DNA from: Callorhinchus milii
Taxonomy: Eukaryota
Direction: 5' to 3'
Length of the DNA: 64,000 nt
Assembly: GCF_018977255.1 (NCBI RefSeq)
Contig: NW_024704742.1
Span: 119,042,001-119,106,000, forward strand
Shown here: one piece after another, positions 1 to 54,845 of the stretch
Numbering within the stretch: the first letter of the stretch is position 1
Layout: each line of letters begins with the position of its first letter
Translations under genes and position numbers: made by a program
The notes under the pieces: generated by a model
Seen by the model: only the letters and a program-made list of their open reading frames with translations
Told to the model about the DNA's origin: nothing
The model's database searches: none

Positions 1-122
1 AGTGTCTGAGCCAAATGGAAGCCAGCTGCAGCAATCAGGGATGGGGGATAATGCACCATATCATAATCCCCCATAGTTAGTTCCATCAGGTATTTGGCAA
101 GAATATGTTGTTCAGCACTAAC
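1..122 (-). CDS. cyclin B1 paralogue exon 7 (truncated by the window edge)
   Basis: [40 protein letters not shown]. Confidence 0.92.
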
Positions 123-3100
123 CTAAAAAGATGGTTTTTCTGCATCAGTTCAGTCAACTTCAGCTGAATATGGACAATTTAGATGTGATGAAAGCATTGA
201 CAATTACAGTAGTTGGACATACTCCTGATGCGAAAGGCACTATACAAATGTAATCTTGCTGTTGTTGTAGTTACTATGTTATTCTGTAAAGCCTGAAATC
301 AAACCTTTAATGGAGACAATAAACATTAGAATGAAAAAATCCTGCAAGATCCTGGAATGATATTACGCACTAGTTTAGGCCAAGCCTTCACTGACATTAC
401 TCAATGACATTATGTCCGCTGCAACTATAGGAAATGACTTACATCTGTAACTTTGGCAGCTCTTCGCAGAAAATGCAGTGGAATTGGCCGACAAAGAGAA
501 AAGTTTAGCCTTTTCAAAATCTCCTCTCCATCTCTCGTACCTGGACACCAGTGTAAGAATTGTCAGTAACAAAGACAAAGTCCCCAATTTCTGGAGGATA
601 CATTTCTTCATATTTGGAAGCCACCAACATTGCTGTAACACCAACAAGCTGTAGTCTCTTTGCAGTTACTAGATTGTTCTGTTTGGTGATAGAGGGGTGG
701 CAGAAGAAAAAAAAGCAAGAATTCATGTTTTGCAAAGTTAGTATTTCCATTAAAATGCACAGCAGTTTTTTTAAAAAAGTAAATGGCTTAACAAGTAGGG
801 AAGATAGATTTCTGACTACATCATCCCAGAAATATCAGGTTATAATGAACTATAGATTTAGCCTTTGTAAACTCTGACAAAGGGTTGTGGACCCGAAACA
901 TTCACTCACTTTGTTTTCTCCATAGATGCTGCCTGACCTGCTGAGTGTTCCCAGCGACTTCTGTTTTTAGCCTTTGAAAATCTTCATTTTCATGGATTTG
1001 GGGGAAAGAGGTTGAAAGCCAAATACTCATAAATGGTCTTTACCTGAAGAAATTGGTCCAAAATAGATACAGTCAAGTACATGGTTTCTTGAAGTAGTTT
1101 AAATTTTATCTGAACTTGCACAAGCCAGTCAATCAGGATAGCACGCATCCCTCCAGTTATCCTTTGTCCTGCCAAGTAGTGGTGTCTCACTGCCTGTTCA
1201 GTCTGCACTCAAAAAGAACAGGGTCATCAGATGATTCACTGCCATCAATCACCTCAATATACATAATGAAAGTTCAAATATTGTTTCATAGAAGATGTTG
1301 CAAAAGGGGGGAGGGAGTTACAACAAAACTTCTCAAATGTTTGGCTGAAATTCAAAATTAATTTAAGGAAAGAAAGAATTAGATAGATTTGCAACATCAA
1401 GTCTAGCACTACACTAAGAAGGAATTGTACCATTTAAGAGCAGGGAGTTTTGGTCAATATCTTCGATATTTGCCTGCCTTAGGTAAGCAACTCAATAATT
1501 CTAGTTTTTTTTCAGATTGATCCTTGAAGTCCCCTAAACAAGTCAAGTAGGCATATTGCTCTGAGGAAAACATAACTGACCAGAAGAGACATAGCAAATT
1601 AGGAAAACAAAATCAGAAGAACTTTCAGTCAATTAAGCCCCATTTAATTTGGGAGAATTTAATCCTAATGTCCCACCCTTTCACCATACTCTTTAATACC
1701 TCTACTGTCCAAGCAAGTATGTCTTTTAAGCATCCTTATAAATTCTCTCTGCACTTCTTTGGCTAGCCTAAACATTGGCACATTGGTCACCGCACACATT
1801 GGTGCTCCAACTTAGTTGTCTATTGCCCATCATGTAGTTTACCTACAGTATAATGAAGACTGACCTCAAGTTGTCTTAAGTAACTGTAGATGTCTTTTAT
1901 ATATTCACTGCACAGAAATGGGTTGTTGCCATCATTGATATCGACATCTTCAATAGGTAGCATTGCATCTGAAAAAGCCTGACATAACACTTCAGACACG
2001 TCAACTGAAGTTTCCATTTGGGATGGCAACATTTGCTATAATGAAGTTTAGAAATAAGATACAGTATGTAAGAAAACAAGCAGATTTACAGGACTGCAAG
2101 TCATATTTCAATACATGAAAAGCTAATCACAAGCAAACAGGTTCATACTCCTTTGCTCTATACAACTGTAGATAACCATTCTCTAGGTCTCAAACACATC
2201 TTTTCTTTGTATAATCTCCCGCTATTGCCTTCTTTTGTCTTGCACCATCAACACCTCTGATCTCGTCATCTTCTGTTCTCCACCTAAATGTTTCCTTTGT
2301 CTTTCTTTCCCTGTCCCCTTCGCTGCTTGTCCTAATAATCTGTTCCCTTCCAACATCTGATGGAAGGTCATAGACCTGAAACGTTAATTCATTTTCCTCT
2401 CTCCATAGATGCTGCGTGTTCCCAGTGACCTCTAGTTTAAACAATGATTTGGTGCAATGATTTGCCATCTTGTCCTACTCAACAATCTCCCAGGTAAAAC
2501 AACCAGTTATTGGCTGTTTGTGGGACTGCAAATGGAGTCTTCACTGCAACTGTAATACAACTGAAATCAATGCTTATAACAAAGCACTGTAGTTGCGATC
2601 CTCAGATGAAGGTTTGAGAAGTCCATACTTGGGATGCTCACAGGAAAATCCTTAGGAGCACTTAAAAAAAAAACTTTTTTTTTGAATGTTCCAAACCAGC
2701 TTTTAATATTTTTTGCAATATGCCATTTGAAACATTTTGCACAAGCAAGTCTGTTGCAGAACGTCTATACAATGGCTGTTGACTATCCAGTGAATAACTT
2801 ATTATTGGACCCAGCCAGATCTTTCATGATCTTAAGTTTTACCTCTGGAATCAAAGATTAGCTTAGTGGACAGGGACAATGTTCACATCGAAAAAAATAT
2901 GAAACTTGCAGCACCTACTTCAAATCCCAAGAATAAAAAGCTTTAAGGATAGCAGTTCATCAGTGTTTCGCAGAAAATTACTTAAAGTGTGGTGACTATT
3001 TCTAGGTAAACATTTGTACCAGGAGAGCCCAACATGTGTTATGACAAAGAGCCCCCAATTTGGAGAATTAATGAGCCCAATAATGCACCATTAAGAATCT

Positions 3101-5225
3101 AGCTTATATTGTGAATCAGAAATTCATTACAAACCTCCAATTGCTCAAAAATTTAATTTAGCCACAAAATTGTTTGGCACATGTTGGAATGTCCAAACTT
3201 TATGTACAATACAAGCTGACATCACATGAAAGATACTGTTTTTTTGCATTCAAACCTGAACTTTTGGAACATCTTCATTGGAGGGTTCCTTCTGCAGTAT
3301 ACTTTCTGATTGACATTTTTTCATTGATTCCACCTTTTTAACAGCCATACGTTTTGCCTATAGAATTAAGACACATGTTATTAGTTTCTATATTCAAAGC
3401 AACCCAAACTACAATTTGGCAATTCAAGTTATTATATACAAGCACACTCTACAAACAGGTATGAAGTGAATGACAAAAACATATTTGGAGGATTAGATTA
3501 TTGGCCAGGAGTTTCAAGATATGACAGGATCTTTAAATTCCACCAGAAGAAACAAATAAGATTTAATTAAAGATTTTATCCAAAGGATGGCAACTCTTGA
3601 TAATGCAGGTCAACTCAACTGGAGCATAACTTCCAACATGGGGCTTGAAACTACCTTCTGACCCAAAGACAAGAGTGCTACTAACTGAGCCAAGCTGATG
3701 CTCCAGTATTGCACAGTCATCTTACAGTCCTTGCATTTGGTTTAATATATTATCATGTCAGAAGGGCATCTCAAAGCACCTCACAGGATTTAGTTTGAAA
3801 TGGAGCAACTGTGCAACTGAAGGCAAATGCAGTAGCGCAACTACACATGGCATCGTCCCACTGCCACAAAACAAAGCCTAGAACTAAAGCCATCTTAAAG
3901 TGTATTTGTAACTCAACACGAAAATTGAAGGTATTAGCTCTCTTCTGAATATTAAAAGCAAGTTCACCTTTTGTAAAATTCTCTTTGGAAGTGTCTTATT
4001 TCTGATGTCCATCAAAGCATTTCTAGGCACCAAGCTAGCAACTATTCCATCTTTTGTTGAATTCACATGATTTACAACAGCTTGGGTAGCCTAAGAAAAA
4101 AACATTTCCAAATATAAGCTATTGCTGACAGTATCATGCAAGAACTGACAACATATGAAATTCATTGATCTCATGCACCATTTGTTTTTAATACATCATA
4201 TTAAATATTAAAAAAATCGAGCATTTTCATGTCAACATCATTAAATTTATCAAGATATTGCACAAGTACCCCGACTGCAACTACCTGCTGAGTGAATGTA
4301 ATAAACTTTATTTCCAACAGCAGGGAGAAAGAAAGAAGTTCAACAGCAGAAGACTAGCACAAATTATACGTCAAGTTCAAGCATTTTATTTAAACACGCA
4401 AGTGTTTGGCAATTCTGTTCTGTGAGTAACACACCCTCGTTTTTCTAGGAAGATTAACAAGAACTATAGATAGTTAAATATTTTGTATACCGCTGGATGG
4501 AAGTAGTATATTCAATTGGAGACAGCTGCCAGGGACTAATAAGCCCAAAATAATGATAATACATGGCTAGAGCGAAAACACTCTCCCAGCATATTGAGGT
4601 CAACCAATTTCTGAGTAAGCATCTTGACAGCTTATTAAATCATGGCCGATTTAATGTTAATTTCTTGTTCAAGTACGCTAGTTACCATGGGCAGAATGAT
4701 TATTAAATCAGCTGCATCCACTTGCTTCAAATAGTTCTTCAGGCACTTAACAGGTGCGACAAAGCAACCCTGGAAGAGAATCGCTTATTGTAGCATTACG
4801 TAGCAAATGCCATTGATGATCAGTAACTGCACAGATAAATGTAGTTTAAAAAAAGTGTTTACTTGAATAAACATATACAGATATTGCACACGACATTTCA
4901 AGAACCTGTGTCTAGTTCCCAGAACCCAAATCCAGCTCACTTCAATTCACTTTTACTGAGACACTAAAATGAATCAGCATCCAAACCATCCAAAACCCTC
5001 ACAAGGAGACAACACAAAGCTAGTTACTACATTACTACAAGAAATATTATGAAAATCCAAAGCACCGATTTAAAAAGCTTATTAAAGCACCGGCAATCCC
5101 CCAAATCTGACCACATGTTGACTACACGCTTTCCATTGCAGATGAAAGTTAAACAACTTGCTGGAAATCTCTACAATTTTAAATGCAACTCGTTTTTATC
5201 TCACCCGTCTTGACTGGAAAGCCAT
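1..5225 (-). CDS. Tandem cyclin B1 paralogue (partial, runs off the left edge), with one 1-nt frameshift in exon 6: young pseudogene or assembly error
   Basis: Exons (minus): 5205-5225, 3968-4090, 3256-3357, 1865-2035, 1044-1202, 443-678, <1-122. Same exon layout as CCNB1, with D-box [29 protein letters not shown] and [13 protein letters not shown]. Exon 6 is 236 nt rather than 237. Confidence 0.9.
443..678 (-). CDS. cyclin B1 paralogue exon 6 (1-nt deletion near 521)
   Basis: [34 protein letters not shown]...[30 protein letters not shown]. Confidence 0.9.
872..965 (+). mobile_element. Short Penelope-like terminal fragment with hammerhead-like motif, flanked by a 15-bp TSD
   Basis: CTGACAAAGGGTTGTGGACCCGAAAC...GATGCTGCCTGACCTGCTGAGTGTTCCCAGC; flanks TTTAGCCTTTG(T/A)AAA at 857-871 and 966-980. 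Confidence 0.75.
1044..1202 (-). CDS. cyclin B1 paralogue exon 5
   Basis: [10 protein letters not shown]...[35 protein letters not shown]; 159 nt. Confidence 0.93.
1865..2035 (-). CDS. cyclin B1 paralogue exon 4
   Basis: [26 protein letters not shown]...[17 protein letters not shown]. Confidence 0.9.
2180..2430 (+). mobile_element. Older, longer copy of the same Penelope-like terminus
   Basis: Pyrimidine-rich leader, then CTGATGGAAGGTCATAGACCTGAAACGTTAA...CTCCATAGATGCTGC. Confidence 0.65.
3256..3357 (-). CDS. cyclin B1 paralogue exon 3
   Basis: [34 protein letters not shown]; open, phase 0, weak similarity to CCNB1 exon 3 (KVE..K.C...EDV). Confidence 0.65.
3968..4090 (-). CDS. cyclin B1 paralogue exon 2 (D-box)
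   Basis: ATQAVVNH...[22 protein letters not shown]; tag|...|gtgaac. Confidence 0.83.
5205..5225 (-). CDS. cyclin B1 paralogue exon 1
   Basis: MAFQSRR, 21 nt like CCNB1 exon 1, donor gtgaga, just downstream of a CDE/CHR. Confidence 0.78.
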
Positions 5226-5355
5226 ATTTTTTCTCTCTAATGTCTAAACTTAGTAGATGAAAACTCGACTGCAAACAGCTGCAACTCCTGTTCCAGCCCG
5301 TAAATCAGTGCTCAGCCTGGCTAGCGCTCTCTGATAGCAGCTGCTCCTCTCCTCC

Positions 5356-5385
5356 TTTAAATCCAGCGCCATACACTGTGATTGG
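5356..5385 (-). promoter_or_regulatory. Paralogue promoter: CDE/CHR plus CCAAT box
   Basis: Minus strand GGCGC-TGGA-TTTAAA (5356-5370) and CCAAT at 5381-5385, same geometry as the CCNB1 promoter. Confidence 0.72.
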
Positions 5386-8315: not shown

Positions 8316-8426
8316 TTATTTCTGGGGAAGCAGAGATTTTGACAGGTTAAGTATCACATCGGATCTCAGCTGTGAAATTGTACTGATCTTCATTTGCTTG
8401 CTGCTGGTATATTTGTTCTTAACCGT
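8316..8426 (-). CDS. CCNB1: CCNB1 coding exon 9 (last)
   Basis: [36 protein letters not shown]. Confidence 0.94.
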   Translation of the reverse strand, partial: TVKNKYTSSKQMKISTISQLRSDVILNLSKSLLPQK

Positions 8427-11400
8427 CTGAAAGGAAAGAGCAAAATCTTGAAGTTAGTATTGATATCAAAGAATTCTGACAAACGCCAATAGTGGTTTAA
8501 CAAGAGCCTCAAAATCAGTCATATGGATCACATCCTTCAAGTTTTGTATTGAGGTAGAAACAATATTTGTCCAATGAGTGATGACAGCAGATGTACATTT
8601 TAGTCAATTCCTCTAGACAGGGTTAGGGTGAAGCTTTGCTTTCACCATCACAGGTCAGTTATCACACCTCCCCCCCACCCATGGGGTCTATTGTAGACAA
8701 CAGCATAAGAGTATTTGGTTAGACTGTCAATGTTTTGAGATAACTCTGGGGCAAATTCTTGAGACAAGTAAACAGAGCTGCAGGTAGGGCTCAAAAAAAA
8801 AAGGAATGGAGAAAAAGGGCAGCCCCTCAACCTAAGAGATCCATACAAGGGCAATGAAACATTGCAAAATACAGATGGGAAGTCATTTGATGATTGGTTG
8901 AACCTCAAGCATTGGCATGATGAATTACGTCTTCAGTGCCAGAATCTGTACTTTATTGGAAAAGTGAATATTATACAGATTATAATTTGCAGAACAGGTT
9001 CTGACCACATAAGTACAAGTATCCCACCAAGCTACTCAAATTTGTAAAAATGCAACATTTCAGATTTCTAGTATAGGATAGTGCCCTAACCTGGTTAGAA
9101 AACCATTTACTTAAGATACTTTGCCAGTCAACCTACTAACTTGTGTATTAACTTACCACATGCTTAGTGAGCCCCTGGTTGACCTTCACAATATTCTTGG
9201 CCATATGCTGCATCACTGAAACCAGTTCATCCTCTTTATATGCCATGTAATGCTGCAGCACATCATTCTGAAAGAAATCAAACTGGTCAGTGCACAACCC
9301 AGAATTTCCTACGAAATAATTTCCAGAGAACCACAGCTCAAGTTTGGCATAAACATTCTCATACTTACCCAGTCGCCACTGTTTAACACTTTCTGAGCAA
9401 GGCAGAACGCAGCAGCAGCAATCTTGGATGGAGGATAATGCACCATCTCATAGTCCACTATGGTCAGCTCCATCAGGTATTTGGCAAGGGTGTGTTGTTC
9501 AGAGCTTACCTAGGGCAAGAGGCAATATTCAGTCAGCTAATTGATTAACATTACAATATACCTCCCTTTCCACTTGGAAGGAAATGTGTCATGTTCTCCC
9601 TGGAACAGCTCCTTGAAGACTCATTTGCACAACATGGGCATGAAGTAGTTTTGCAATCAACTGATATTTTAGAATTAATACAACTTCCACATGTCAGTCC
9701 TGTAGATAAGTCTATTGCTGCCTAAAAGTTGTGGTATTTATTTGAATCCAAGGCATAGGTGCTTAAAAAAATCTCTGGTGCAACTTAGAATTGATGGTGC
9801 CTTAGGATTTAAGACAATACAATCCTTTCCCCAACTGCACACAAGGTGGGGGCACCTTAAGATAACTATGCTACCCCCTGCCTCTGCAAGCTCTTTCACT
9901 CTGAGCCAACTACTCACTCACTTTGTTCAACAAGTACTGCTCTGCTTCATCCCCCTCTGGAATTTCATCCTCAATTCTCTCCACTCTTTCAAGACAGTCT
10001 TAGAGGTATATTTTTTGGCCAAACTGTTATCTATCCCCTCCTCATAGGTGCCTGTCCACCACTGAACGGCTTAAGTCCTTCCAACATGAAGGGTGCTATG
10101 CAAATTGTAATGTACGTCAAACATCATTTCAGTGAAGCTAATTTATAGTTGAAAGAAGAAAAATACTTCAGCTATCTTTGAAGATCTTCTCAGAAAGTGC
10201 AGAGGGAGGGGCCGACCAAGAGAAAAATCAAGCTCCCGCAGAATCCTCCTCTCCATCTCGCGAATCTGAGTACTGGTGTAGGTGCTGTCAGTGACAAAGG
10301 CAAAGTCCTCAATTTCTGGCGGATACATCTCCTCATATTTGGAAGCCACCAGCATTGCAGTAACACCAACAAGTTGTAGAATCTTCTTTGTTACTACATT
10401 ATCCTGCAAAAGACAGAAGCTCATTACCGGTGAATCTTTTGCTTTGGGAGCCAGTGGGTACAATTCCAAATCATACCCCGTCTGCTGTCTACATGCAGCC
10501 AAGAGATAATGTAAATTAAGATGCAATGTAAGGTTTCGACAGGCTAGACAAGGAAAAGCTGTTTCCGCTGGTAGGTGTGTCTGTGACCCGTGGTCACAGC
10601 CTTAAGATATCTACTAAAAGAAGCAGAGGGGAGGTTAGAAGAAATTTTTTCACTCAGCGAGTTGTTCAAATTTGGAATGATCTGCCTGAAAGGGTAGTGA
10701 AGTCCGATTCGATAACAGCTTTTAAGAGAGAACTGGATAGGTATCTGGGGAAGACGGGTTTGCAGGGTTATGGGGAGAAAGCTGGTGATTGGGGTTAGTG
10801 AAAGTGACTTGCTCTGTCAAAGAGCCGGCACAGACTCGATGCGCCGAATGGCCTCCTTCTGTGCCGTAACATTCTATGAATAAGACCGCAACAGCAACTT
10901 GAGCTGGAGCGCTGTACTTTACTTGGGCCTTAATTAGGGCAACCATTAAGATCAAAATGTTTGCATTTGACTGAATACTGGGGAACAACCCCATTACAAC
11001 TCAATTGTGGATGAAGTTTCAGGAATCATAAATAGGCATGAGTGGTGGTTAACAGGTTACTACAGGGCTAATACACATGGCACGCAGAAGTGATGCTAAT
11101 GCAACTTTATAAAGATTAGGTCAGTAGCTCTTCCCACATAGAACAATAGTAAACTGATGAACTGGAAGTCAGTCACGTTTCCATGATTGGATTTGTCAGA
11201 GCTCTCAACCAACATTTGTTCAGCAAGCCAAGCCTTTGAAAAAAGGCTTCCTTTAAATAACTATTAGGAAAATGTTCCATGAATTGATTCACAAGGTGTC
11301 TTAGACACACATCTAATTAACTGAAGCCGAAATACCTTGTTTAGAAGGGGATTTAAAGTGTGCCAACTTCTAGCTGGAATCTTAAGTCACAAGTAAGGGG

Positions 11401-14400
11401 TAATAGGCAGCAAGAAAACTTAATTCTTACCTACTTTCACAGGGTAATTCAGAAAGCATGGTGTAGTTCATTTCTGAAAGGAGTCTTAAGCTGGATCTCA
11501 AGTCCTTAAGCTGTCTGATTTCTGCAATATTAAATCCCACTAAACAAAACTTAACATTAATTATGGAACTACAGGAATTAGTTACGCAAACTACCCCAAA
11601 TTCTTACCTGAAGGTATCGATCTATGATTGCCACAGTTAGGTACATGGTTTCCTGAAGCAGCCTGAATTTCATCTGAACCTGAACAAGCCAGTCAATTAG
11701 GATAGCTCGCATATTCCCAGTTATTTCCTTTCCCTCCAAGTACTTTGGTCTCACTGGCTGCTCTGCCTGCATTGAGAAAGTATAAAGCACAACAGGTTAT
11801 TAATACTGCCAAAAAGGTGTTAAACTTCAATGCAGAAACAGCTTAGGTCAAATTGTCTTGCTTCAGAGAGTCGGGATTGTGGGTTCAAGACCACGACAAG
11901 ATGCTGATCTCAGTCAAAGGCTGACACATCAGCCTGTCTGCCTATTACTAGTGAAGCACTGCATTGTTAGAGGGGCAGTCTTTCAGACAGACAACTGAGG
12001 CTCTTTCTGCTATTTCAAATGAATGTTAAATAATAAAGCTTGCATTTGATATAGCGCTTTTCACATCTTCAACATCTCAAAGCGCTTCACAGAATATACT
12101 GTAAAGTGAATTGACTACATTTGTGAGCGAAACCCAGCAGCCAATTGCACACAGCTAAAGATCCCATGACACTATTAAAAAAATGTTCCGCTGGTGTCCT
12201 GGCAAACAATCTCCCAGATAAGTGATCATTAACTTCAGATGCTTGGGGAACATTGATTGCCATGTTTGCCTTCAAAACGAAGTCACCACAATTCCCTGTA
12301 AAATGACACGCTTTTGGACATCATCTCAACAAGAAAGGTGCTGTATCAAATGCCTACCCAACTACCTAATCTCAGTCTAAATGGTACAAGTTAAGAGGGC
12401 AAAGTTTAGATTTAAGTTCACCACTGATGTTACTTCCTGCACATTGCATTCAAGAAATACGATCACCTATTATCTAACATCAAGCACCTCCTATACACGT
12501 CAGCAGAAACCCGACAACTCAAAGCTGACCATTGCCCCCCCCCAACAATAATAGGATTTGTTCGACGTCTGTTTTTCAGGTAAGGAAAATCAGCATCCAT
12601 AACCTAGTTACAAGCAAACCCTTATGTGATTGCCCTCCAGCTTAAGACATTGAATAGATAGCCATCTGCTATCGTAGCTGGGCACAGAACTTAAGGGTAA
12701 ATATAATCATTTTGATTCCATGTGGAAGTATTGTGTTATGGTCCTTTGACAGTATTCTGATCAAGGCAGTGCAACCTAGATGTCCAATTTGAGAAAAATG
12801 CATACAGGTGTATGAATTTGCCCACCGAGTCACCATCTGCCATAAAGTGCACTATACAAAGTGGCTCACTCATAGATTATGACTCTATACTCTACATGAA
12901 CTAAACCAGATGACAATCACTTGGAGCCAATGTCCTACCCAGGAATTGGGGACAACCTTCAATGGATTGCAGATGCAGCATAGTAAACGTACCTCAAGTT
13001 GTCGCAAGTATTTGTAAATGTCTTTGACATATTCACTGCACAGCATAGGATTGTCACCATCATCTTCATCAACGTCTTTAACAGGCAGCAGCACCTCTGA
13101 GAAAGCCTGGCACAGATCATCAGGTATACATCCTGAGGTTTCCATCAGGGTTGGAGAAGCAGGAACTTGCAACTAAAAAGCAAAGTTTAGTATAAATGTA
13201 GGTGCACTTAAACCAATTCTAAAGTTACAAGAAAAGGTAAATTAGTTACCTAGTGATGCACATTGATCCAAAAGAGAATTTAGGAGGAACTACTTCATAC
13301 AGATTGTGGAACTCGCTGACTGAAGCAATGGTTGAATCAGATAGTATAAAGGTATTTAAGAGGTAGCCAGACCCTCACACGAAAGGGAGGGAAATAGAAG
13401 GTTGTGTGGGGGAGGAAGTAAGGAAGGGTTGGAGACTCAAAGACTGGATGATCAAGTGGCCTGTCTCTGTACATCGTTTAAACCGAGTATCTTGCAAGAG
13501 GAGCACAAGCGGAGCATGCTTTGCACCAGAAGGATGGCAAAGCAGGCAAACTTATCAGTCAGCTGAATCCATTCAGTCAGGAACACAAGAGTCAACCTCT
13601 CATAAGGAAACCAACACTATTAGAAATGTGGCTGTACAGTGAGTATGTAGTTACTGTTCTTCATGGGTACACCCAAGGAGCAAGTATGCAACCTGAAACT
13701 GTAGAGATCTTCCAAGTTTAGACATTCACCTTGCTGTGTAAAAAGCTTACCGTTAACACATCTTCTGGTTGGACAACTGGTTTGCAAGGTTTCACTTGTT
13801 CCACCTTAGGAGCAGGCACATTTTTCTCCTATATTGTAGAAAAGTTTTCAAAGATTAACCAGCTGTACATAATCATGAAAAGAATTCTACTCATCTCAAC
13901 CACCACCAGAACTCCACACAGAAGGAAACACTTGGGTACATATTGCTGCTAGTTGCTGAAACGCAAGCACACCAATTTGAAACCGTCAACCCAAAATGGA
14001 CCCAATTTTAAAGTGAAATGCAGTGAGAAATAGTTGGACAAGGCTGTGAACAGCTTTTTTAAAAAAAAAGTGAATATAATGAGCATACACATCACTGCAC
14101 ATTGACAGGGAAACCTAAACCACATGATTTTCCAGGCACAGCCACCACTGCATAGGTGGAGAATTCAAATGTTTGAGACCATTGATAGCTAAATGGTTGC
14201 CCATTCACCAACCATTTTTCTCTCAAATCATAGAGTCACCTTCTTAACTACTATGCATGCTTAAAAAAAGTGTAGTAAAAATAAAACTAAATCTTAATAA
14301 AGCTGCAAATGACCCATTAATAATAATAAATAATAATCCTTGCATTTGATAGCACTTTTCACGTCTTCTAGATGTCCTAAAGCGCTTCACAGAATATACT

Positions 14401-17400
14401 GTAATGTGAATTAACTGTATATTTGTGGGCAAACGCGGCAGCCAATTGCGCACAGCAATGTCCCACAAATAGTCATAGATTGAAAATGACCAATTTATTA
14501 TTGTTTTTGGTTTTAGAGGGATTATTATTAGGAGTGTGGAGTAAGGAAACTTGCCCAAGGTTTGGCCCTGCCTGGAATTGAACTCAGGTCTCTCACTTGC
14601 AAAGCGAGTGCTCTAACCACTGAGCTACAGGACTTCTACAATTATACCTTTTTCAAAGGTACCTTGGCTCCTACTACTTTCCCTCGTGCCTTGTTTCCGA
14701 TGTCCCCCAAGGCAGGTCTTGGTCTTAGGCGAGGTTTTGTTCCAGCTTTAGCCGCTGGCAGGTGTGTCGGTTCAACATTGTTGACAGCAACTCGGGTAGT
14801 CTGCAAGACAAAGAACACAAGTTATTGTAGAGAAATGTGGTTAGTACATAGAGTGCTAGTTAATATTTACTGAATAAAAATCCACAATATACTTAACATT
14901 ACACACGTTAGAAAATGTGACCAGGAGGCAGAATTTTGAAGGTGGGGTGGAGGAAAAAAAGGAAAGGACACTGAAAGTTGACAAGTTCTTTGAAGGCAGA
15001 GACTCTGGAGTAATATCTTTAATTTAACAAGTTAAAATAATTGGGTTGTAATTAACATTACTTTTATTTGTAGTATTCTTAACACAGCAAATAGCTATAC
15101 AACCCTGATCTCGGAATGATGAAGAGAATCCCACATTAAAGGCATATTATTATGTCCACAAAACTTAAGTGAATTTAAATCTTACCTCAAAAGGACAGAT
15201 CACACAAGCTGACTTGCATTACTCAACTGAATTAGTCTAAGCAAATTTGAAAATATACAAGCTTTAATTTTAATTCAACCTATATACAAATGCCATTGAT
15301 CACTCTCTCCCCAACGTAGAGGGAAGGAGATGTACTTGGGATGAAAATGTTTAACTAATTGCAACATGGTGTGAATGAAATTGCACTGGGCTCAAAATGC
15401 ACTGGGCAGAAAGTCAGCCTGAAATCCCAAGCAGTAATGACAAACCTTCACTTATAAGAATGTACTTATTCAACTGAAGCGTCTATACTATCTAGGGCAA
15501 GATTATACACAAGCACGCCTTGCCATCTCAGAATGTTAATTTAGTAAACGAGAACAAGACTCAAGTATCTGAGGCCAATTCATTTATTCTTGAATTTCAA
15601 TTACTGAAGACATGGCCCCTTTTGAAGCACTGAGAACAAGAGACCATTGAAACAAAGGGTGAATAACCAAGTCCCATTCTATTTGCTGAGGCTGTTTAAA
15701 GTTTGCACTTTAAAGTCAATCCACACTTTCATAATGGAAAATTTAACATAGGAACCACCAACACTCACTAAAAATAGCTGGAATAAGGAGTTCATTCACA
15801 TCAGGAATACCTTCAGTTTGGATAAATAGTTGATATCTTCTACAATGCTTCATTAATACGGCAAGTATCAAGTATTAATTAAGAGCCTGTTAACCCTGGG
15901 GTTGATAAAGCAACTTTTGACATAGACCTGACCATAAGGCTTCTCTTTTTTAAAAACATCTAAAGAGGGAGAAACTGATCATAATACAACAAGCCTTGCA
16001 TATGATACAGCAACTTATGTCATTGAAAGATCTCAAAGCACTTCACATGACCCACTATAAAGTGGATTGACTATTTTGTTCCTTGGTAAAAGAGGGGCAA
16101 TCGCTCATTACTCCTTAATCAAGATTCTCCATTCCCAAAGCACTCATTGCCGGGTTAGTTCAGAGGCACCTGCTCAGCCTTAACACTTAAGTTTGCATTC
16201 CTTGCTGCAGTACACTCCAACTGGTGTAGTAGCCTTCACCAAACTCCCAACATCTGCAAGGCAGCATTTCAGTTGTACCCAGATGACACGATTGCTACAG
16301 CTCCACAAGCGGGTCAAGTAACCCGCCAAACCAGTTAGCTTGTTTAAAGGAGTTGCTCAAATTAATCAATAATAAGCAACAGATGCATATAGCACCTTTC
16401 AGGTCAGAAGGAAGTCTCGAAGCACTTCACATAACTGACTGGGCACCCAAGTTCTTTTTGGGTGGCGGAAGAAGAGAAAAAGAGGTGAAATGAGTTAGAT
16501 TAGTGGATGGGAGAAGAAAATGACCCAGTCACTGAAAAGATGAGTGTAAAGATGGAGGAGGGGTGAAGTGACGACAGTGGGGACTCCAGACAGAGCTCTA
16601 GTGAGTAGGAGACATAATGGCTGAAGCTCATCCACCAATGGTGAGGCAGATCAGGCACTGCTGACAGAGCAGACGGACTGCAGGAGATTAGGACCAACAG
16701 AGGGAGTTGAATTCAAGGATATGAATTTTCAGTTAAATCCACTGGGGGATGGGGGGCAGTGAAGCCAAAGCAAATTGGTAAGAAGCAGTGAAATGTTCAC
16801 AGGGGCCACGACACCACATTTAGACCCACCCCGGATGAGTTAAGAGGAGAAGCGCTCTGCAACGCCGCCCCTGCCTTCGCCGCTTCCTCCCTTTCCTCCT
16901 TCAAGGCCGGTCTCAAAACCTTTCTCTTTGACCGTGCCTTCAGCTCCCCTCTCGACTCTCTACCCCCTCCTCACTCCCTCCCTTCCCTCCCCTCACCCTG
17001 ACCATTTCCCCCCTCCTCGCTCCCTCCCTTCCCTCACCCTGACCATTTCCCCCCTCCTCGCTCCCTCCCTTCCCTCCCTCACCCTGACCATTTCCCCCCT
17101 CCTTGCTCCCTCCCTTCCCTCACCCTGACCATTTCCCCCTCCTTGCTCCCTCCCTTCCTCACCCTGACCATTTCCCCCCTCCTCGCTCCCTCCCTTCCCT
17201 CCCCTCACCCCGACCATTTCCCCCCTCCTCGCTCCCTCCCTTCCCTCCCCTCACCCTGACCATTTCCCCCCTGCTCGGGTCATGACCCAACTGTGCAGCG
17301 CCTTGGGACGTCCTCCCGACGTGAAAGGCGCTTTATAAATGGAATCTTGTTGTTGTTGCTGCAATGAAGGGCACTATACAAAAGCACATTTACTCGAGTA

Positions 17401-18102
17401 AATACTACCAATGTACGGTGGGGGGTGAGGGGAGAAGAGCCCGAATGTACCGGTCACCCACGAAAACTGGGCAAATCCTGCTCCAGTTTAACTCGGTCAT
17501 GTGGATGGTGGACCTCGTTATTAACCAATAAAAGACCCAATTAAACCAATCGGATTAGTGCCACACGCTTATTAGTGCCTCACGCTTATTCAGCTTATTC
17601 AGCCAAAAGGTTTACCGTAAGCGCCTTTACTAAGATGGCGGACAGAGATGTGAAACCCCTTCTCTCGCTGGAGGTTTACACACACCGCTGGGATTTCGTT
17701 ACCACGACGAGGGGGTGAAGGCACCGAGTGCAGCCCCGCATTTGGGTGAGGGCAGTGGAGAGGCGCAAATGCATTTGGAAAAGCGACACCAGTTCAAACC
17801 CCTTTGTGCATCCCAACAATAACAAAAGGGAGACTTTCGGTTCAAACCCGAGCCCCGCACCCCCCCCCCACCCACCCGCCCCCCACCCAACAACGCCCCC
17901 CAATTACTTTAGCCCTTTCCGGGAATGAAAGCCGGGCAGCTCCTGGGCCCAGGGAGCCGATCTCCCATTAAGTGGGAGAACCCCGGGGCTCGGAGCTCCG
18001 CGCCTGGACCGTTACCCGCTGAGAGCCCTTCGATAATTATTATCAAATGCTGCGATTTTTTTTTTTAGAAAAAAAACTTACTTTTCTCAAACGAAGAGCC
18101 AT
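8316..18102 (-). CDS. CCNB1: G2/mitotic-specific cyclin B1, complete 9-exon gene, 396 aa
   Basis: Exons (minus): 18082-18102, 14648-14800, 13751-13828, 12993-13172, 11608-11766, 10167-10403, 9369-9509, 9157-9267, 8316-8426; total 1191 nt, all phase-0 GT-AG introns. Contains D-box [40 protein letters not shown] cyclin box, KYEEMYPPE and [10 protein letters not shown]. Immediately downstream of SLC30A5, the known vertebrate synteny. Confidence 0.96.
9157..9267 (-). CDS. CCNB1: CCNB1 coding exon 8
   Basis: [37 protein letters not shown]. Confidence 0.95.
9369..9509 (-). CDS. CCNB1: CCNB1 coding exon 7
   Basis: [47 protein letters not shown]. Confidence 0.96.
10167..10403 (-). CDS. CCNB1: CCNB1 coding exon 6
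   Basis: [30 protein letters not shown]...[16 protein letters not shown]; 237 nt. Confidence 0.96.
10530..10879 (+). mobile_element. CR1-clade LINE 3' fragment
   Basis: TRGHSLKI...[16 protein letters not shown]...GLQGYG; tail GGCCTCCTTCTGTGCCGTAACATTCTATGA. Confidence 0.9.
11608..11766 (-). CDS. CCNB1: CCNB1 coding exon 5
   Basis: [10 protein letters not shown]...[35 protein letters not shown]. Confidence 0.96.
12993..13172 (-). CDS. CCNB1: CCNB1 coding exon 4
   Basis: [27 protein letters not shown]...[17 protein letters not shown]. Confidence 0.93.
13751..13828 (-). CDS. CCNB1: CCNB1 coding exon 3
   Basis: [26 protein letters not shown]; tag|...|gtaagc; low-conservation linker. Confidence 0.8.
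14320..14635 (-). mobile_element. tRNA-derived Deu-domain SINE, full length
   Basis: A box TAGCTCAGTGG, B box GTTCAATTCC, Deu core GCTGTGCGCAATTGGCTGCCGCGTTT, L2-like tail, (ATT)n. Confidence 0.9.
14648..14800 (-). CDS. CCNB1: CCNB1 coding exon 2 (D-box)
   Basis: TTRVAVNN...[28 protein letters not shown]-box at 14693-14719. Confidence 0.9.
16855..17360 (+). mobile_element. L2 3' end with an internally expanded 39-46 bp tandem repeat
   Basis: Matches 53440-53670; CACCC(T/C)GACCATTTCCCC occurs 7 times in 16994-17272. Confidence 0.9.
18082..18102 (-). CDS. CCNB1: CCNB1 coding exon 1
   Basis: MALRLRK, 21 nt, donor gtaagt. Confidence 0.88.
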
Positions 18103-18246
18103 GACCGCGGCTGAGAGAGTATGATCTAAAATAACAGCTCAAAGTGTGTGTGTGTGTGTGTTTTTTTTTTCTCTCTTCTTCTGCCCCGGTCTCACTCCTC
18201 CTCTCTGTGCTGTGCCTCTCGGTCTGACCCTCACCGCAGCCGCACA

Positions 18247-18445
18247 TTTAAATTCCCCGCCGGGCCGAGCTCATTCGCTGCCGTTCCACGTTCCGCCTCC
18301 TCTGATTGGCTCGGCCCCCGAGCCGCGAGAATGCGTTGGCATGGCGACGGCCCGCGCTGACGTCACCGCCGCGTCGCCTTCGTTGGAGGGGATGTGGCTG
18401 AGGCTGAGTTTGAATCTTGGCGGGGGGTGGGGAGTGGGCGGGGCC
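18247..18445 (-). promoter_or_regulatory. CCNB1 G2/M promoter in a CpG island: CDE/CHR, CCAAT box, CRE, GC box
   Basis: Minus strand GGCGG-GGAA-TTTAAA (18247-18261); CCAAT at 18305-18309 plus a CGAAT variant 32 bp closer (18273-18277); TGACGTCA at 18358-18365; GGGCGGGG near 18436. Confidence 0.8.
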
Positions 18446-18817
18446 ACCGCGGCTCCTCCCCCTCCTCAGGCAGGTTGTCAATCCTCCTGATTTTCAAACT
18501 GCTTTGGAGACAACCTCCCGACCCGGAGGGCGCCCACAAAACTACACAGTCACTCCGCTGAACGGTGATATGTCCTGTGAACTGTTTTGCTGAGGCGCTC
18601 TGTCAAACACACAAGCGTTCAATTCTCCTAAATTCACACTCTGGAATCCCGAAGCCTTGGCTCTTGCAGACTTGAACCTAATTGTCTCTGGAATTAAATA
18701 AGTCTTTTACATCAATGTGGATTAGGCAACTGCCCTCCAGCTGTTTAATTATATGTTAAAACCCAACTTTTGCAGCTCCCTCCCGCGCTCAGGCAGTCAG
18801 TTGTGTGAAATGCTATG

Positions 18818-23605: not shown

Positions 23606-53950
<30,345 letters not shown>

Positions 53951-54080: not shown

Positions 54081-54177
54081 AGTCAGGCGCCCGGACCTCG
54101 ATCCCGCCGTCACCCAGAGCGGAGCGGGGCCTGGAGGCGGCGGCGGGGACACAACACAGGCCTCACAGCAGAGCGGA

Positions 54178-54845
54178 GCTCCCCACACAGCGCCCCCCAC
54201 TGGCCACAACTCCCCACACAGCGCCCCCCACTGGCCACAACTCCCCACACAGCGCCCCCACTGGCCACAACTCCCCCACAGCGCCCCCCACTGGCCACAA
54301 CTCCCCCCACAGCGCCCCCACTGGCCACAACTCCCCACACAGCGCCCCCACATGGCCACAACTCCCCACACAGCGCCCCCCACTGGCCACAACTCCCCAC
54401 ACAGCGCCCCCCACTGGCCACAACTCCCCACACAGCGCCCCCCACTGGCCACAACTCCCCACACAGCGCCCCCCACTGGCCACAACTCCCCACACAGCGC
54501 CCCCACTGGCCACAACTCCCCACACAGCGCCCCCCACTGGCCACAACTCCCCACACAGCGCCCCCCACTGGCCACAACTCCCCACACAGCGCCCCCACTG
54601 GCCACAACTCCCCACACAGCGCCCCCCACTGGCCACAACTCCCACACAGCGCCCCCACTGGCCACAACTCCCCACAGCGCCCCCCACTGGCCACAACTGC
54701 CCACACAGCGCTCCCCCCCCCCAACTCCCCACACAGCGTCCCCCCACTGGCCACAACTCCCCCCACAGTGCCCCCCCAACTCCCCCACAGTGCCCCCCCC
54801 CCCCACTGGCCACAACTCCCCACACTACGCCCTCCACTGGCCATA
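54178..54845. repeat. 30-31 bp minisatellite, about 20-22 units, (CTCCCCACACAGCGCCCCCCACTGGCCACAA)n
   Basis: Direct tandem units read by eye; they differ mainly in C-run length and decay at the right end. Confidence 0.97.

Follow-up and report, generated by a model that had tools for sequence, protein, structure and literature searches.

Directly behind CCNB1 (gene A) the elephant shark Callorhinchus milii carries a second cyclin B1 gene (gene B), which is transcribed and spliced and which very probably represents a class-wide tandem paralogue of CCNB1 dating from the chondrichthyan stem. On balance we think it probable that gene B is a functional second cyclin B1 ("CCNB1b"), duplicated before the split of the two subclasses, and about even odds that the two copies have divided the regulatory work.

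Genomic context and gene structure

The window analysed in this work is a stretch of 64,000 nt (C1:119042001-119106000) of a genome of 991.5 Mb; plain numbers below are positions in the window, while those with the prefix C1 are positions in the contig. The order of genes on the - strand is a cation-efflux gene, gene A (18102-8316), gene B (5225 to C1:119040951) and CENPH, of which a CENP-H exon was located at C1:119004096, downstream of gene B; all four genes are on this strand. The cation-efflux gene, whose first exon is near 53950, was identified by Pfam to family level, and we take it to be SLC30A5, as did an earlier note on this DNA. The human order is SLC30A5-CCNB1-CENPH. The position of gene B, between the cation-efflux gene and gene A on one side and CENPH on the other, is that of the CCNB1 locus, with the upstream gene assigned to its family. 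No third cyclin copy was found in the 29 kb beyond the window start (downstream of gene B). A search for the MRPS36 family had no match, but it had none in 14 controls either and so carries no information. The features of the locus are as follows:

27831-29888, - strand: two exons of the cation-efflux gene (Pfam hits), synteny marker upstream of gene A
8316-18102, - strand: gene A, canonical CCNB1, 9 exons, 396 aa
5381-5385, - strand: CCAAT box of the gene B promoter
5356-5370, - strand: CDE-like GGCGC, 4-nt spacer and CHR TTTAAA of the gene B promoter
5205-5367, - strand: gene B exon 1, with 5' UTR from at least 5367 and 21 coding nt at 5225-5205
3968-4090, - strand: gene B exon 2 (123 nt), carries the D-box
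3256-3357, - strand: gene B exon 3 (102 nt)
1865-2035, - strand: gene B exon 4 (171 nt), cytoplasmic retention/nuclear export region
1044-1202, - strand: gene B exon 5 (159 nt), carries MRAIL
443-678, - strand: gene B exon 6, 236 nt in the assembly, one base short near 521
1-122, - strand: part of gene B exon 7 inside the window (141 nt in full)
C1:119040875-119041880, - strand: gene B exons 8 and 9 and 3' UTR, outside the window

The translation of gene A is identical to P0022, the C. milii cyclin B1, apart from residue 365. The earlier note had placed a second cyclin gene of the same exon layout about 3 kb downstream of CCNB1, and this proved correct: the ATG of gene B is at 5225, 3.09 kb beyond the stop of gene A at 8316, and each gene has nine coding exons separated by eight phase-0 introns, all GT..AG. 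The coding exons measure 21/153/78/180/159/237/141/111/111 nt in gene A and 21/123/102/171/159/236/141/111/123 nt in gene B, those of equal size being exons 1, 5, 7 and 8 (21, 159, 141 and 111 nt). The gene is real, but its earlier description omitted a frameshift in exon 6 and the last exons, which lie past the window start (the remainder of exon 7 and exons 8-9, at about C1:119040951-119042000). Our model of gene B and the public protein P0005 (395 aa) disagree at two places, T/A at residue 140 and the break at 245. Proteins A and B are 64% identical, rising to 72% in the cyclin core, and the 12-residue and 11-residue cyclin B1 signature peptides are both present in gene B. Comparing gene B with gene A by blastn yielded 15 HSPs, of which the strong ones lie on exons or on stretches that we read as interspersed repeats. 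The earlier impression that the introns show no visible similarity holds to this extent, but one HSP (70% over 371 nt, exons included) spans intron 7, which is 100/101 nt long in the two genes.

An open stretch of intron 1 at about 4770-4630 was considered as exon 1 and rejected, being skipped by the splice joint 4089-5204; the odd start of the protein P0001 derives from directly beside this stretch. Two apparent polymorphisms were seen in gene B, one at residue 140, which is Thr in the window (site 1202) and in run X5 and Ala in P0005, and one at window position 463, where runs X1 and X6 have T>G.

Transcription, promoters and 3' UTRs

Four runs were compared as contigs. Run X1 has genome-wide cover with about 1% other letters and looks genomic, X6 is spliced, and both X5 and X6 were classed as RNA by guess. 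A single 857-nt contig of X5 extends from 5367 to 540, and its five joints are introns 1-5 of gene B; four of these five joints recur in X6 and none in X1. The joints shown were 15 of 553, with the exon 6-7 joint not among them. Canonical joints that are missing from the genomic-looking X1 are hard to account for by anything other than splicing of gene B. Gene B is transcribed and spliced, and spliced contigs of both A and B are present in X5 and X6. Among eight runs guessed to be RNA, three had 0.15-0.17 of the words and five had 0.00, and X16 had a spliced gene A contig with next to no cover on the exons of gene B; such blanks are no proof of absence. One joint that "goes back" (11765->1864) is not a case of trans-splicing, since the reference did not include exon 4 of gene A, and the loose end at 1935 consists of gene A sequence.

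Gene B has its own promoter, as had been claimed, with CCAAT at 5385, GGCGC at 5370 and TTTAAA at 5361, and the spliced contig begins at 5367. The promoter of gene A has GGCGG, 4 nt and TTTAAA at 18261-18247, and CCAAT together with CDE/CHR is found in both promoters, as a match of sequence only. The CHR of mammalian Ccnb1 reads TTTAAA, and a CDE spacer of four bases is the arrangement described in the accessible part of PMC4176359. The two promoters differ in class: that of gene A is a CpG island (about 17900-18500, CpG o/e 0.90), whereas that of gene B has a CpG o/e of 0.41-0.48 and no CpG island, against a window mean of 0.39.

The 3' UTR of gene B is short and has one consensus CPE (TTTTAAT) 10 nt ahead of AATAAA. 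This is not beyond chance, since 38% of 20000 shuffles also have one, and the CPE was for this reason dropped as an argument for oocyte control of gene B. At window 8263-8219 (- strand), in the 3' UTR of gene A, we noted TGTAAATA, presumably a Pumilio-like site, and also TTTTAACT immediately ahead of AATAAA; no consensus CPE was found in this 3' UTR.

The missing base in exon 6

In the assembly gene B has an exon 6 of 236 nt, versus 237 in gene A, and translation runs into a stop after residue 246. An extra C behind 520, which restores the frame, is present in X1 and X6 (depth 7.9/16.6 and 11.5/11.5, respectively); X5, whose main contig breaks off at 540, has a depth of 158 at the site and no listed insertion, and X16 has no cover at the break. 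The proteins P0001 and P0005 read through, no further stop or indel occurs in the 395 codons of gene B, and all splice sites are canonical. The open frame in X1 and X6, together with the public protein of 395 aa, points to either an assembly error or a rare allele and away from a lost gene; an assembly error is likeliest, and the missing base may be a rare null allele. Because of this missing base gene B may pass for a pseudogene in this assembly. Exon 6 also holds a cryptic CAG/GT donor at 541/540, in frame (138 nt used), and its use might account for the X5 contig ending at 540; among the 15 joints shown of 553, none uses it.

Phylogeny and age of the duplication

Trees were built from 75 of 123 proteins plus two B2-side models from the same genome. 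The quick tree of 67 rows left out ten near-redundant bony rows, and the further trees were a 62-row mixture tree (quick version) and two careful 32-row trees, one of them on the core only with a mixture model. Across the four trees Callorhinchus B and the second copies of elasmobranchs formed one clade (99; 99; 100/99; 100/99), and the chondrichthyan A and B copies fell together into a single clade (100; 99; 100/99; 99/98), with lower values for the A clade by itself (85/60, 93/77). Gene B fell within the vertebrate B1 clade and apart from B2 (100/99), which agrees with the earlier assignment to B1 rather than B2 from signature peptides. The AU test spoke against two duplications, one in each subclass, since it rejected both a Callorhinchus-only A/B pair (p 0.0013) and an elasmobranch-only clade (p 0.0054). 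In an alignment of 25 rows, eight residues link Callorhinchus B to at least 7/9 elasmobranch B rows and are found nowhere else, and only one residue links Callorhinchus A and B alone. Judged from these trees and residues, the duplication most likely took place on the chondrichthyan stem, before the split of holocephalans and elasmobranchs. The chondrichthyan stem dates to over 400 million years ago. The earlier idea of an old tandem duplicate was well founded.

The genome has separate B2-side cyclin genes on contigs C26 and C391. The latter gene (G000:C391:12384-14420, + strand, on a 70.7-kb contig) forms a long B2-side branch apart from the former, to which it is 65% identical; this brings the B-type cyclin genes of the elephant shark to at least four, two of B1 type and two on the B2 side. 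Ascaphus truei has a second B1-like protein, P0145, which forms a long branch within the amphibians (98/95) and whose contig is not the one that carries the other Ascaphus B1; our guess is that it belongs to the B4/ccnb1.2 lineage. Xenopus B4/ccnb1.2 was not recognisable among the matches listed (120 of 652).

Distribution in cartilaginous fishes

A homologue search with P0001 gave 1026 matches, 120 of which were listed, and three cluster look-ups were added. Among these 120 of 1026 matches chondrichthyan proteins held the top ranks, after two proteins with internal repeats. Both copies are present in 21 of the 23 chondrichthyan species covered, 13 by tree and eight by 90% cluster membership, and only A was found in Stegostoma and Rhincodon, which is no proof of loss of B. 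The claim that the duplicate is restricted to a lineage stands at the level of the class, but not at that of the species. In 19/20 elasmobranchs A and B are on contigs of equal size, Pristiophorus being without a contig record; the two genes have consecutive locus tags in Scyliorhinus torazame (scyTo_0016391/92, on a single contig of 112,873 bp) and consecutive accessions in Chiloscyllium punctatum (GCC28357/58), and it is these tags, accessions and contig records that point to a tandem position in elasmobranchs. Hypanus sabinus has a third B1-type protein (P0025), near the B copy of that species and on a contig of different size, which is a recent transposed or retro copy.

The NCBI/UniRef entries named "G2/mitotic-specific cyclin-B1-like" in sharks and rays are orthologues of gene B, so these genes have already been predicted; the "cyclin-B1-like" label is also carried by A copies and marks no orthologous group. 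A literature search with thin coverage of subscription journals and supplements returned no description of a chondrichthyan CCNB1 duplicate, and the accessible portions of PMC13052469 and 10.1101/2022.11.14.516384 contain nothing about gene B.

Rate, selection and conserved residues

The mean root-to-tip distance from the A/B node is 0.58 for B and 0.26 for A; gene B evolves about 2.3 times faster than gene A. Relative-rate tests found B to be faster in 15/15 comparisons at p<0.01 (five species by three outgroups, which are not independent), and no end branch in the B clade is longer than that of Callorhinchus B (0.40). The many synonymous differences reported earlier correspond to a pS of 0.57 (dS 1.06), and the purifying selection proposed for gene B is matched by a pairwise A/B dN/dS that is not near 1 (0.23, and 0.19 in the core).

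The D-box, whose consensus is RxxLxxxxN, is kept in 10/10 B rows (R42, L45, N50), and so are MRAIL and W208, K257, E286, R307, H320 and K324 (human numbering). The Pfam domains of P0005 are complete (PF00134, Cyclin_N, 1-127/127; PF02984, Cyclin_C, 1-118/119), and all six solved-structure matches to gene B under 1e-60 are cyclin B1 (best E about 1e-131). Conserved residues and constraint together argue that the product of gene B is most likely a CDK1-activating, D-box-degraded mitotic or meiotic cyclin.

Export signal and proline-directed sites

According to the accessible part of PMC13041915, the export signal at human residues 142-153 confines cyclin B1 to the cytoplasm up to the phosphorylation of Ser147, and the signals of B1 and B2 are modelled in this preprint with a 3-3-0 spacing, a register that by our own count does not use residue 149; F146A is export-defective (PMC2150562, in the text available). 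Residues of the region were tallied in 77 rows against the cyclin B1 reference signal LCQAFSDVIL. V149 is present in 42/42 bony B1 rows, in 13/14 A rows and in 0/17 B rows, which have Glu (11), Ser (4) or Ala (2). Residue 144, Q in the reference, is acidic in 15/16 elasmobranch B rows, L142 is lost in six and kept in 11 of the 17 B rows, and F146 and S147 are kept in all 17. Callorhinchus B has the least changed export region among the B copies and departs from the B1 consensus, at the positions tested, only at 149 (Ala) and 150 (Met). Ala at 149 is also found in 4/4 B2-side rows. This shared Ala149, the 3-3-0 register, the invariant F146 and the little-changed Callorhinchus copy all argue against a loss of export, and the change of the signal in B may be neutral; what it does depends on the register in which the signal is read.

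In a gappy alignment around human 126-129, shark A copies keep Ser126-Pro and have lost the Pro after Ser128, and elasmobranch B copies keep Ser128-Pro, with the aligned Ser126 mostly missing. A split of proline-directed sites between A and B copies is possible.

Discussion

Compared with vertebrate CCNB1, as represented by the human structures 9skq_B and 7nj0_C, gene B has the same domains, D-box, MRAIL, exon layout, type of CHR and locus. It differs in being second in the tandem, in evolving at some 2.3 times the rate, in its CpG-poor promoter and in never keeping V149; in addition elasmobranch B is acidic around S147, and Ser126 is absent or unaligned in most B rows. We think it probable that gene B is a functional CCNB1b. 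The whole CCNB1 gene with its promoter was duplicated in tandem at the DNA level before the holocephalan/elasmobranch split, both copies were retained, and B is spliced and changes at about twice the rate of A under purifying selection. On the strength of its conserved residues the B protein would bind and activate CDK1, dock substrates and be destroyed via its D-box, and transcription of B would be gated at G2/M through CDE/CHR. Gene A, whose promoter is a CpG island and whose export signal is intact, would have remained the general mitotic cyclin, and gene B, with its CpG-poor promoter and altered tail and export region, would be a restricted M-phase cyclin, likely of the germline or early embryo. 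For a regulatory division of work between A and B that includes such a germline or early-embryo role the chances seem to us about even; the CDE/CHR retained by B is typical of a mitotic promoter and counts against a restricted germline role.

Gene B might instead be a dosage copy, in other words one more cyclin B1 of the usual mitotic type, expressed together with A and retained for quantity, in which case its faster rate would reflect nothing more than relaxed constraint. Both promoters have kept CDE/CHR and CCAAT, all of the core residues tested are kept, X5 and X6 contain spliced contigs of the two genes and the CPE of B is at chance level, all of which would suit this explanation; on the other hand B has been retained in 21/23 species with fixed clade-specific residues, the increase in rate is one-sided and the promoter classes differ in CpG content, and we consider a mere dosage copy rather unlikely. 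It is also improbable that B is functional in sharks and rays and decaying in the elephant shark, with the exon 6 deletion as a segregating null allele. The frameshift of the assembly would fit with such decay, as would the end branch of 0.40, the extra base in only about half of the X1 depth at 520 and the X5 run without a listed insertion, but the frame is open in X1, X6 and P0001/P0005, the 395 codons have no other stop or indel, dN/dS in the core is 0.19 and the splice sites are canonical.

A duplication older than the bony-vertebrate split, followed by loss of B in that lineage and by early gene conversion or shared drift which mimics the sisterhood of A and B, appears quite improbable. 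A split before jawed vertebrates, in which A joins bony B1, was not rejected by the AU test at full length (p 0.061), but was rejected on the core with the mixture model (p 0.022). Ten columns are common to A and the bony rows and missing from B, a pattern also predicted by the faster rate of B, whereas seven columns common to A and B are absent in 6/6 bony rows; the clade of A and B reached 100/99 and 99/98, and no bony row fell inside the B clade (42 in the 77-row residue set, 32 of them in the 67-row tree). Two further identities for gene B, orthology with frog cyclin B4 (ccnb1.2) or a CCNB2 that has been misplaced, we hold to be very improbable. Frogs do have a further B1-like protein (P0145 of Ascaphus) and B shares Ala at 149 with CCNB2, but a grouping of B with P0145, the one second frog copy in the set, was rejected (p-AU 7e-5) and P0145 sits inside the amphibians (98/95); as for CCNB2, the genome has its own B2-side genes (C26, C391) and B lies inside the B1 clade (100/99).

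For gene B as a CCNB1b kept throughout the class, there are parallels in frogs. We take frog cyclin B4 to be ccnb1.2. Cyclin B4 is named as polyadenylation-activated in oocytes in the accessible part of PMC7348711. Like gene B it supplements the canonical cyclin B1 with a further one of B1 type, and both groups of animals would share large yolky eggs, but its origin is independent as far as tested, and the reported oocyte regulation belongs to B4. The frog parallel drawn in the earlier note would, as far as the sequences were tested, be one of convergence, since the second Ascaphus copy groups with amphibian B1. Xenopus ccnb5 is a tandem copy of ccnb2, and CcnB1 and CcnB2 are the jawed-vertebrate set, according to the accessible text of PMC9178385, which mentions no chondrichthyan ccnb1 duplicate and cites a companion manuscript in preparation. 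Like gene B, ccnb5 is a mitotic B cyclin that was duplicated in tandem within one lineage; its source was ccnb2, whereas that of gene B was CCNB1, and gene B extends over a whole class.

A second CCNB1 kept throughout a vertebrate class enlarges the inventory given in the available part of PMC9178385, and calls for caution with the "cyclin-B1-like" labels in shark and ray data, which mix two paralogues. The significance is that of a gene-family fact, with no new mechanism. Genes A and B form a natural pair whose main differences are the class of promoter, the tail and the export signal, and such a pair could help to separate the features of cyclin B1 that serve meiosis from those that serve mitosis. 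More speculatively, and in our view doubtfully, CCNB1b might be a class-wide germline cyclin in which the acidic residues 144 and 149 of sharks and rays, with some loss of Leu142, mimic the phosphorylated, export-resistant state, so that its CDK1 complex would be nuclear without the prophase switch. If true, this would be a separation-of-function allele of cyclin B1 kept for over 400 million years and convergent with frog B4.

Other features of the locus

Several repeats were seen by eye in the window. A tandem array with a unit of ~24 nt, at about 54170-54830, immediately precedes exon 1 of the cation-efflux gene, and intron 1 of that gene holds a LINE-like reverse-transcriptase remnant at about 51600-53650, of which shorter copies occur at about 44500-45000 and 50200-51000. 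A C/T-rich array of ~40 nt units lies at about 16970-17280, in intron 1 of gene A. Some 26 kb behind gene B, at C1:119014400-119015100, there is a CpG island, accompanied by CCAAT boxes and a short array of tandem repeats, which is likely to be the CENPH promoter.
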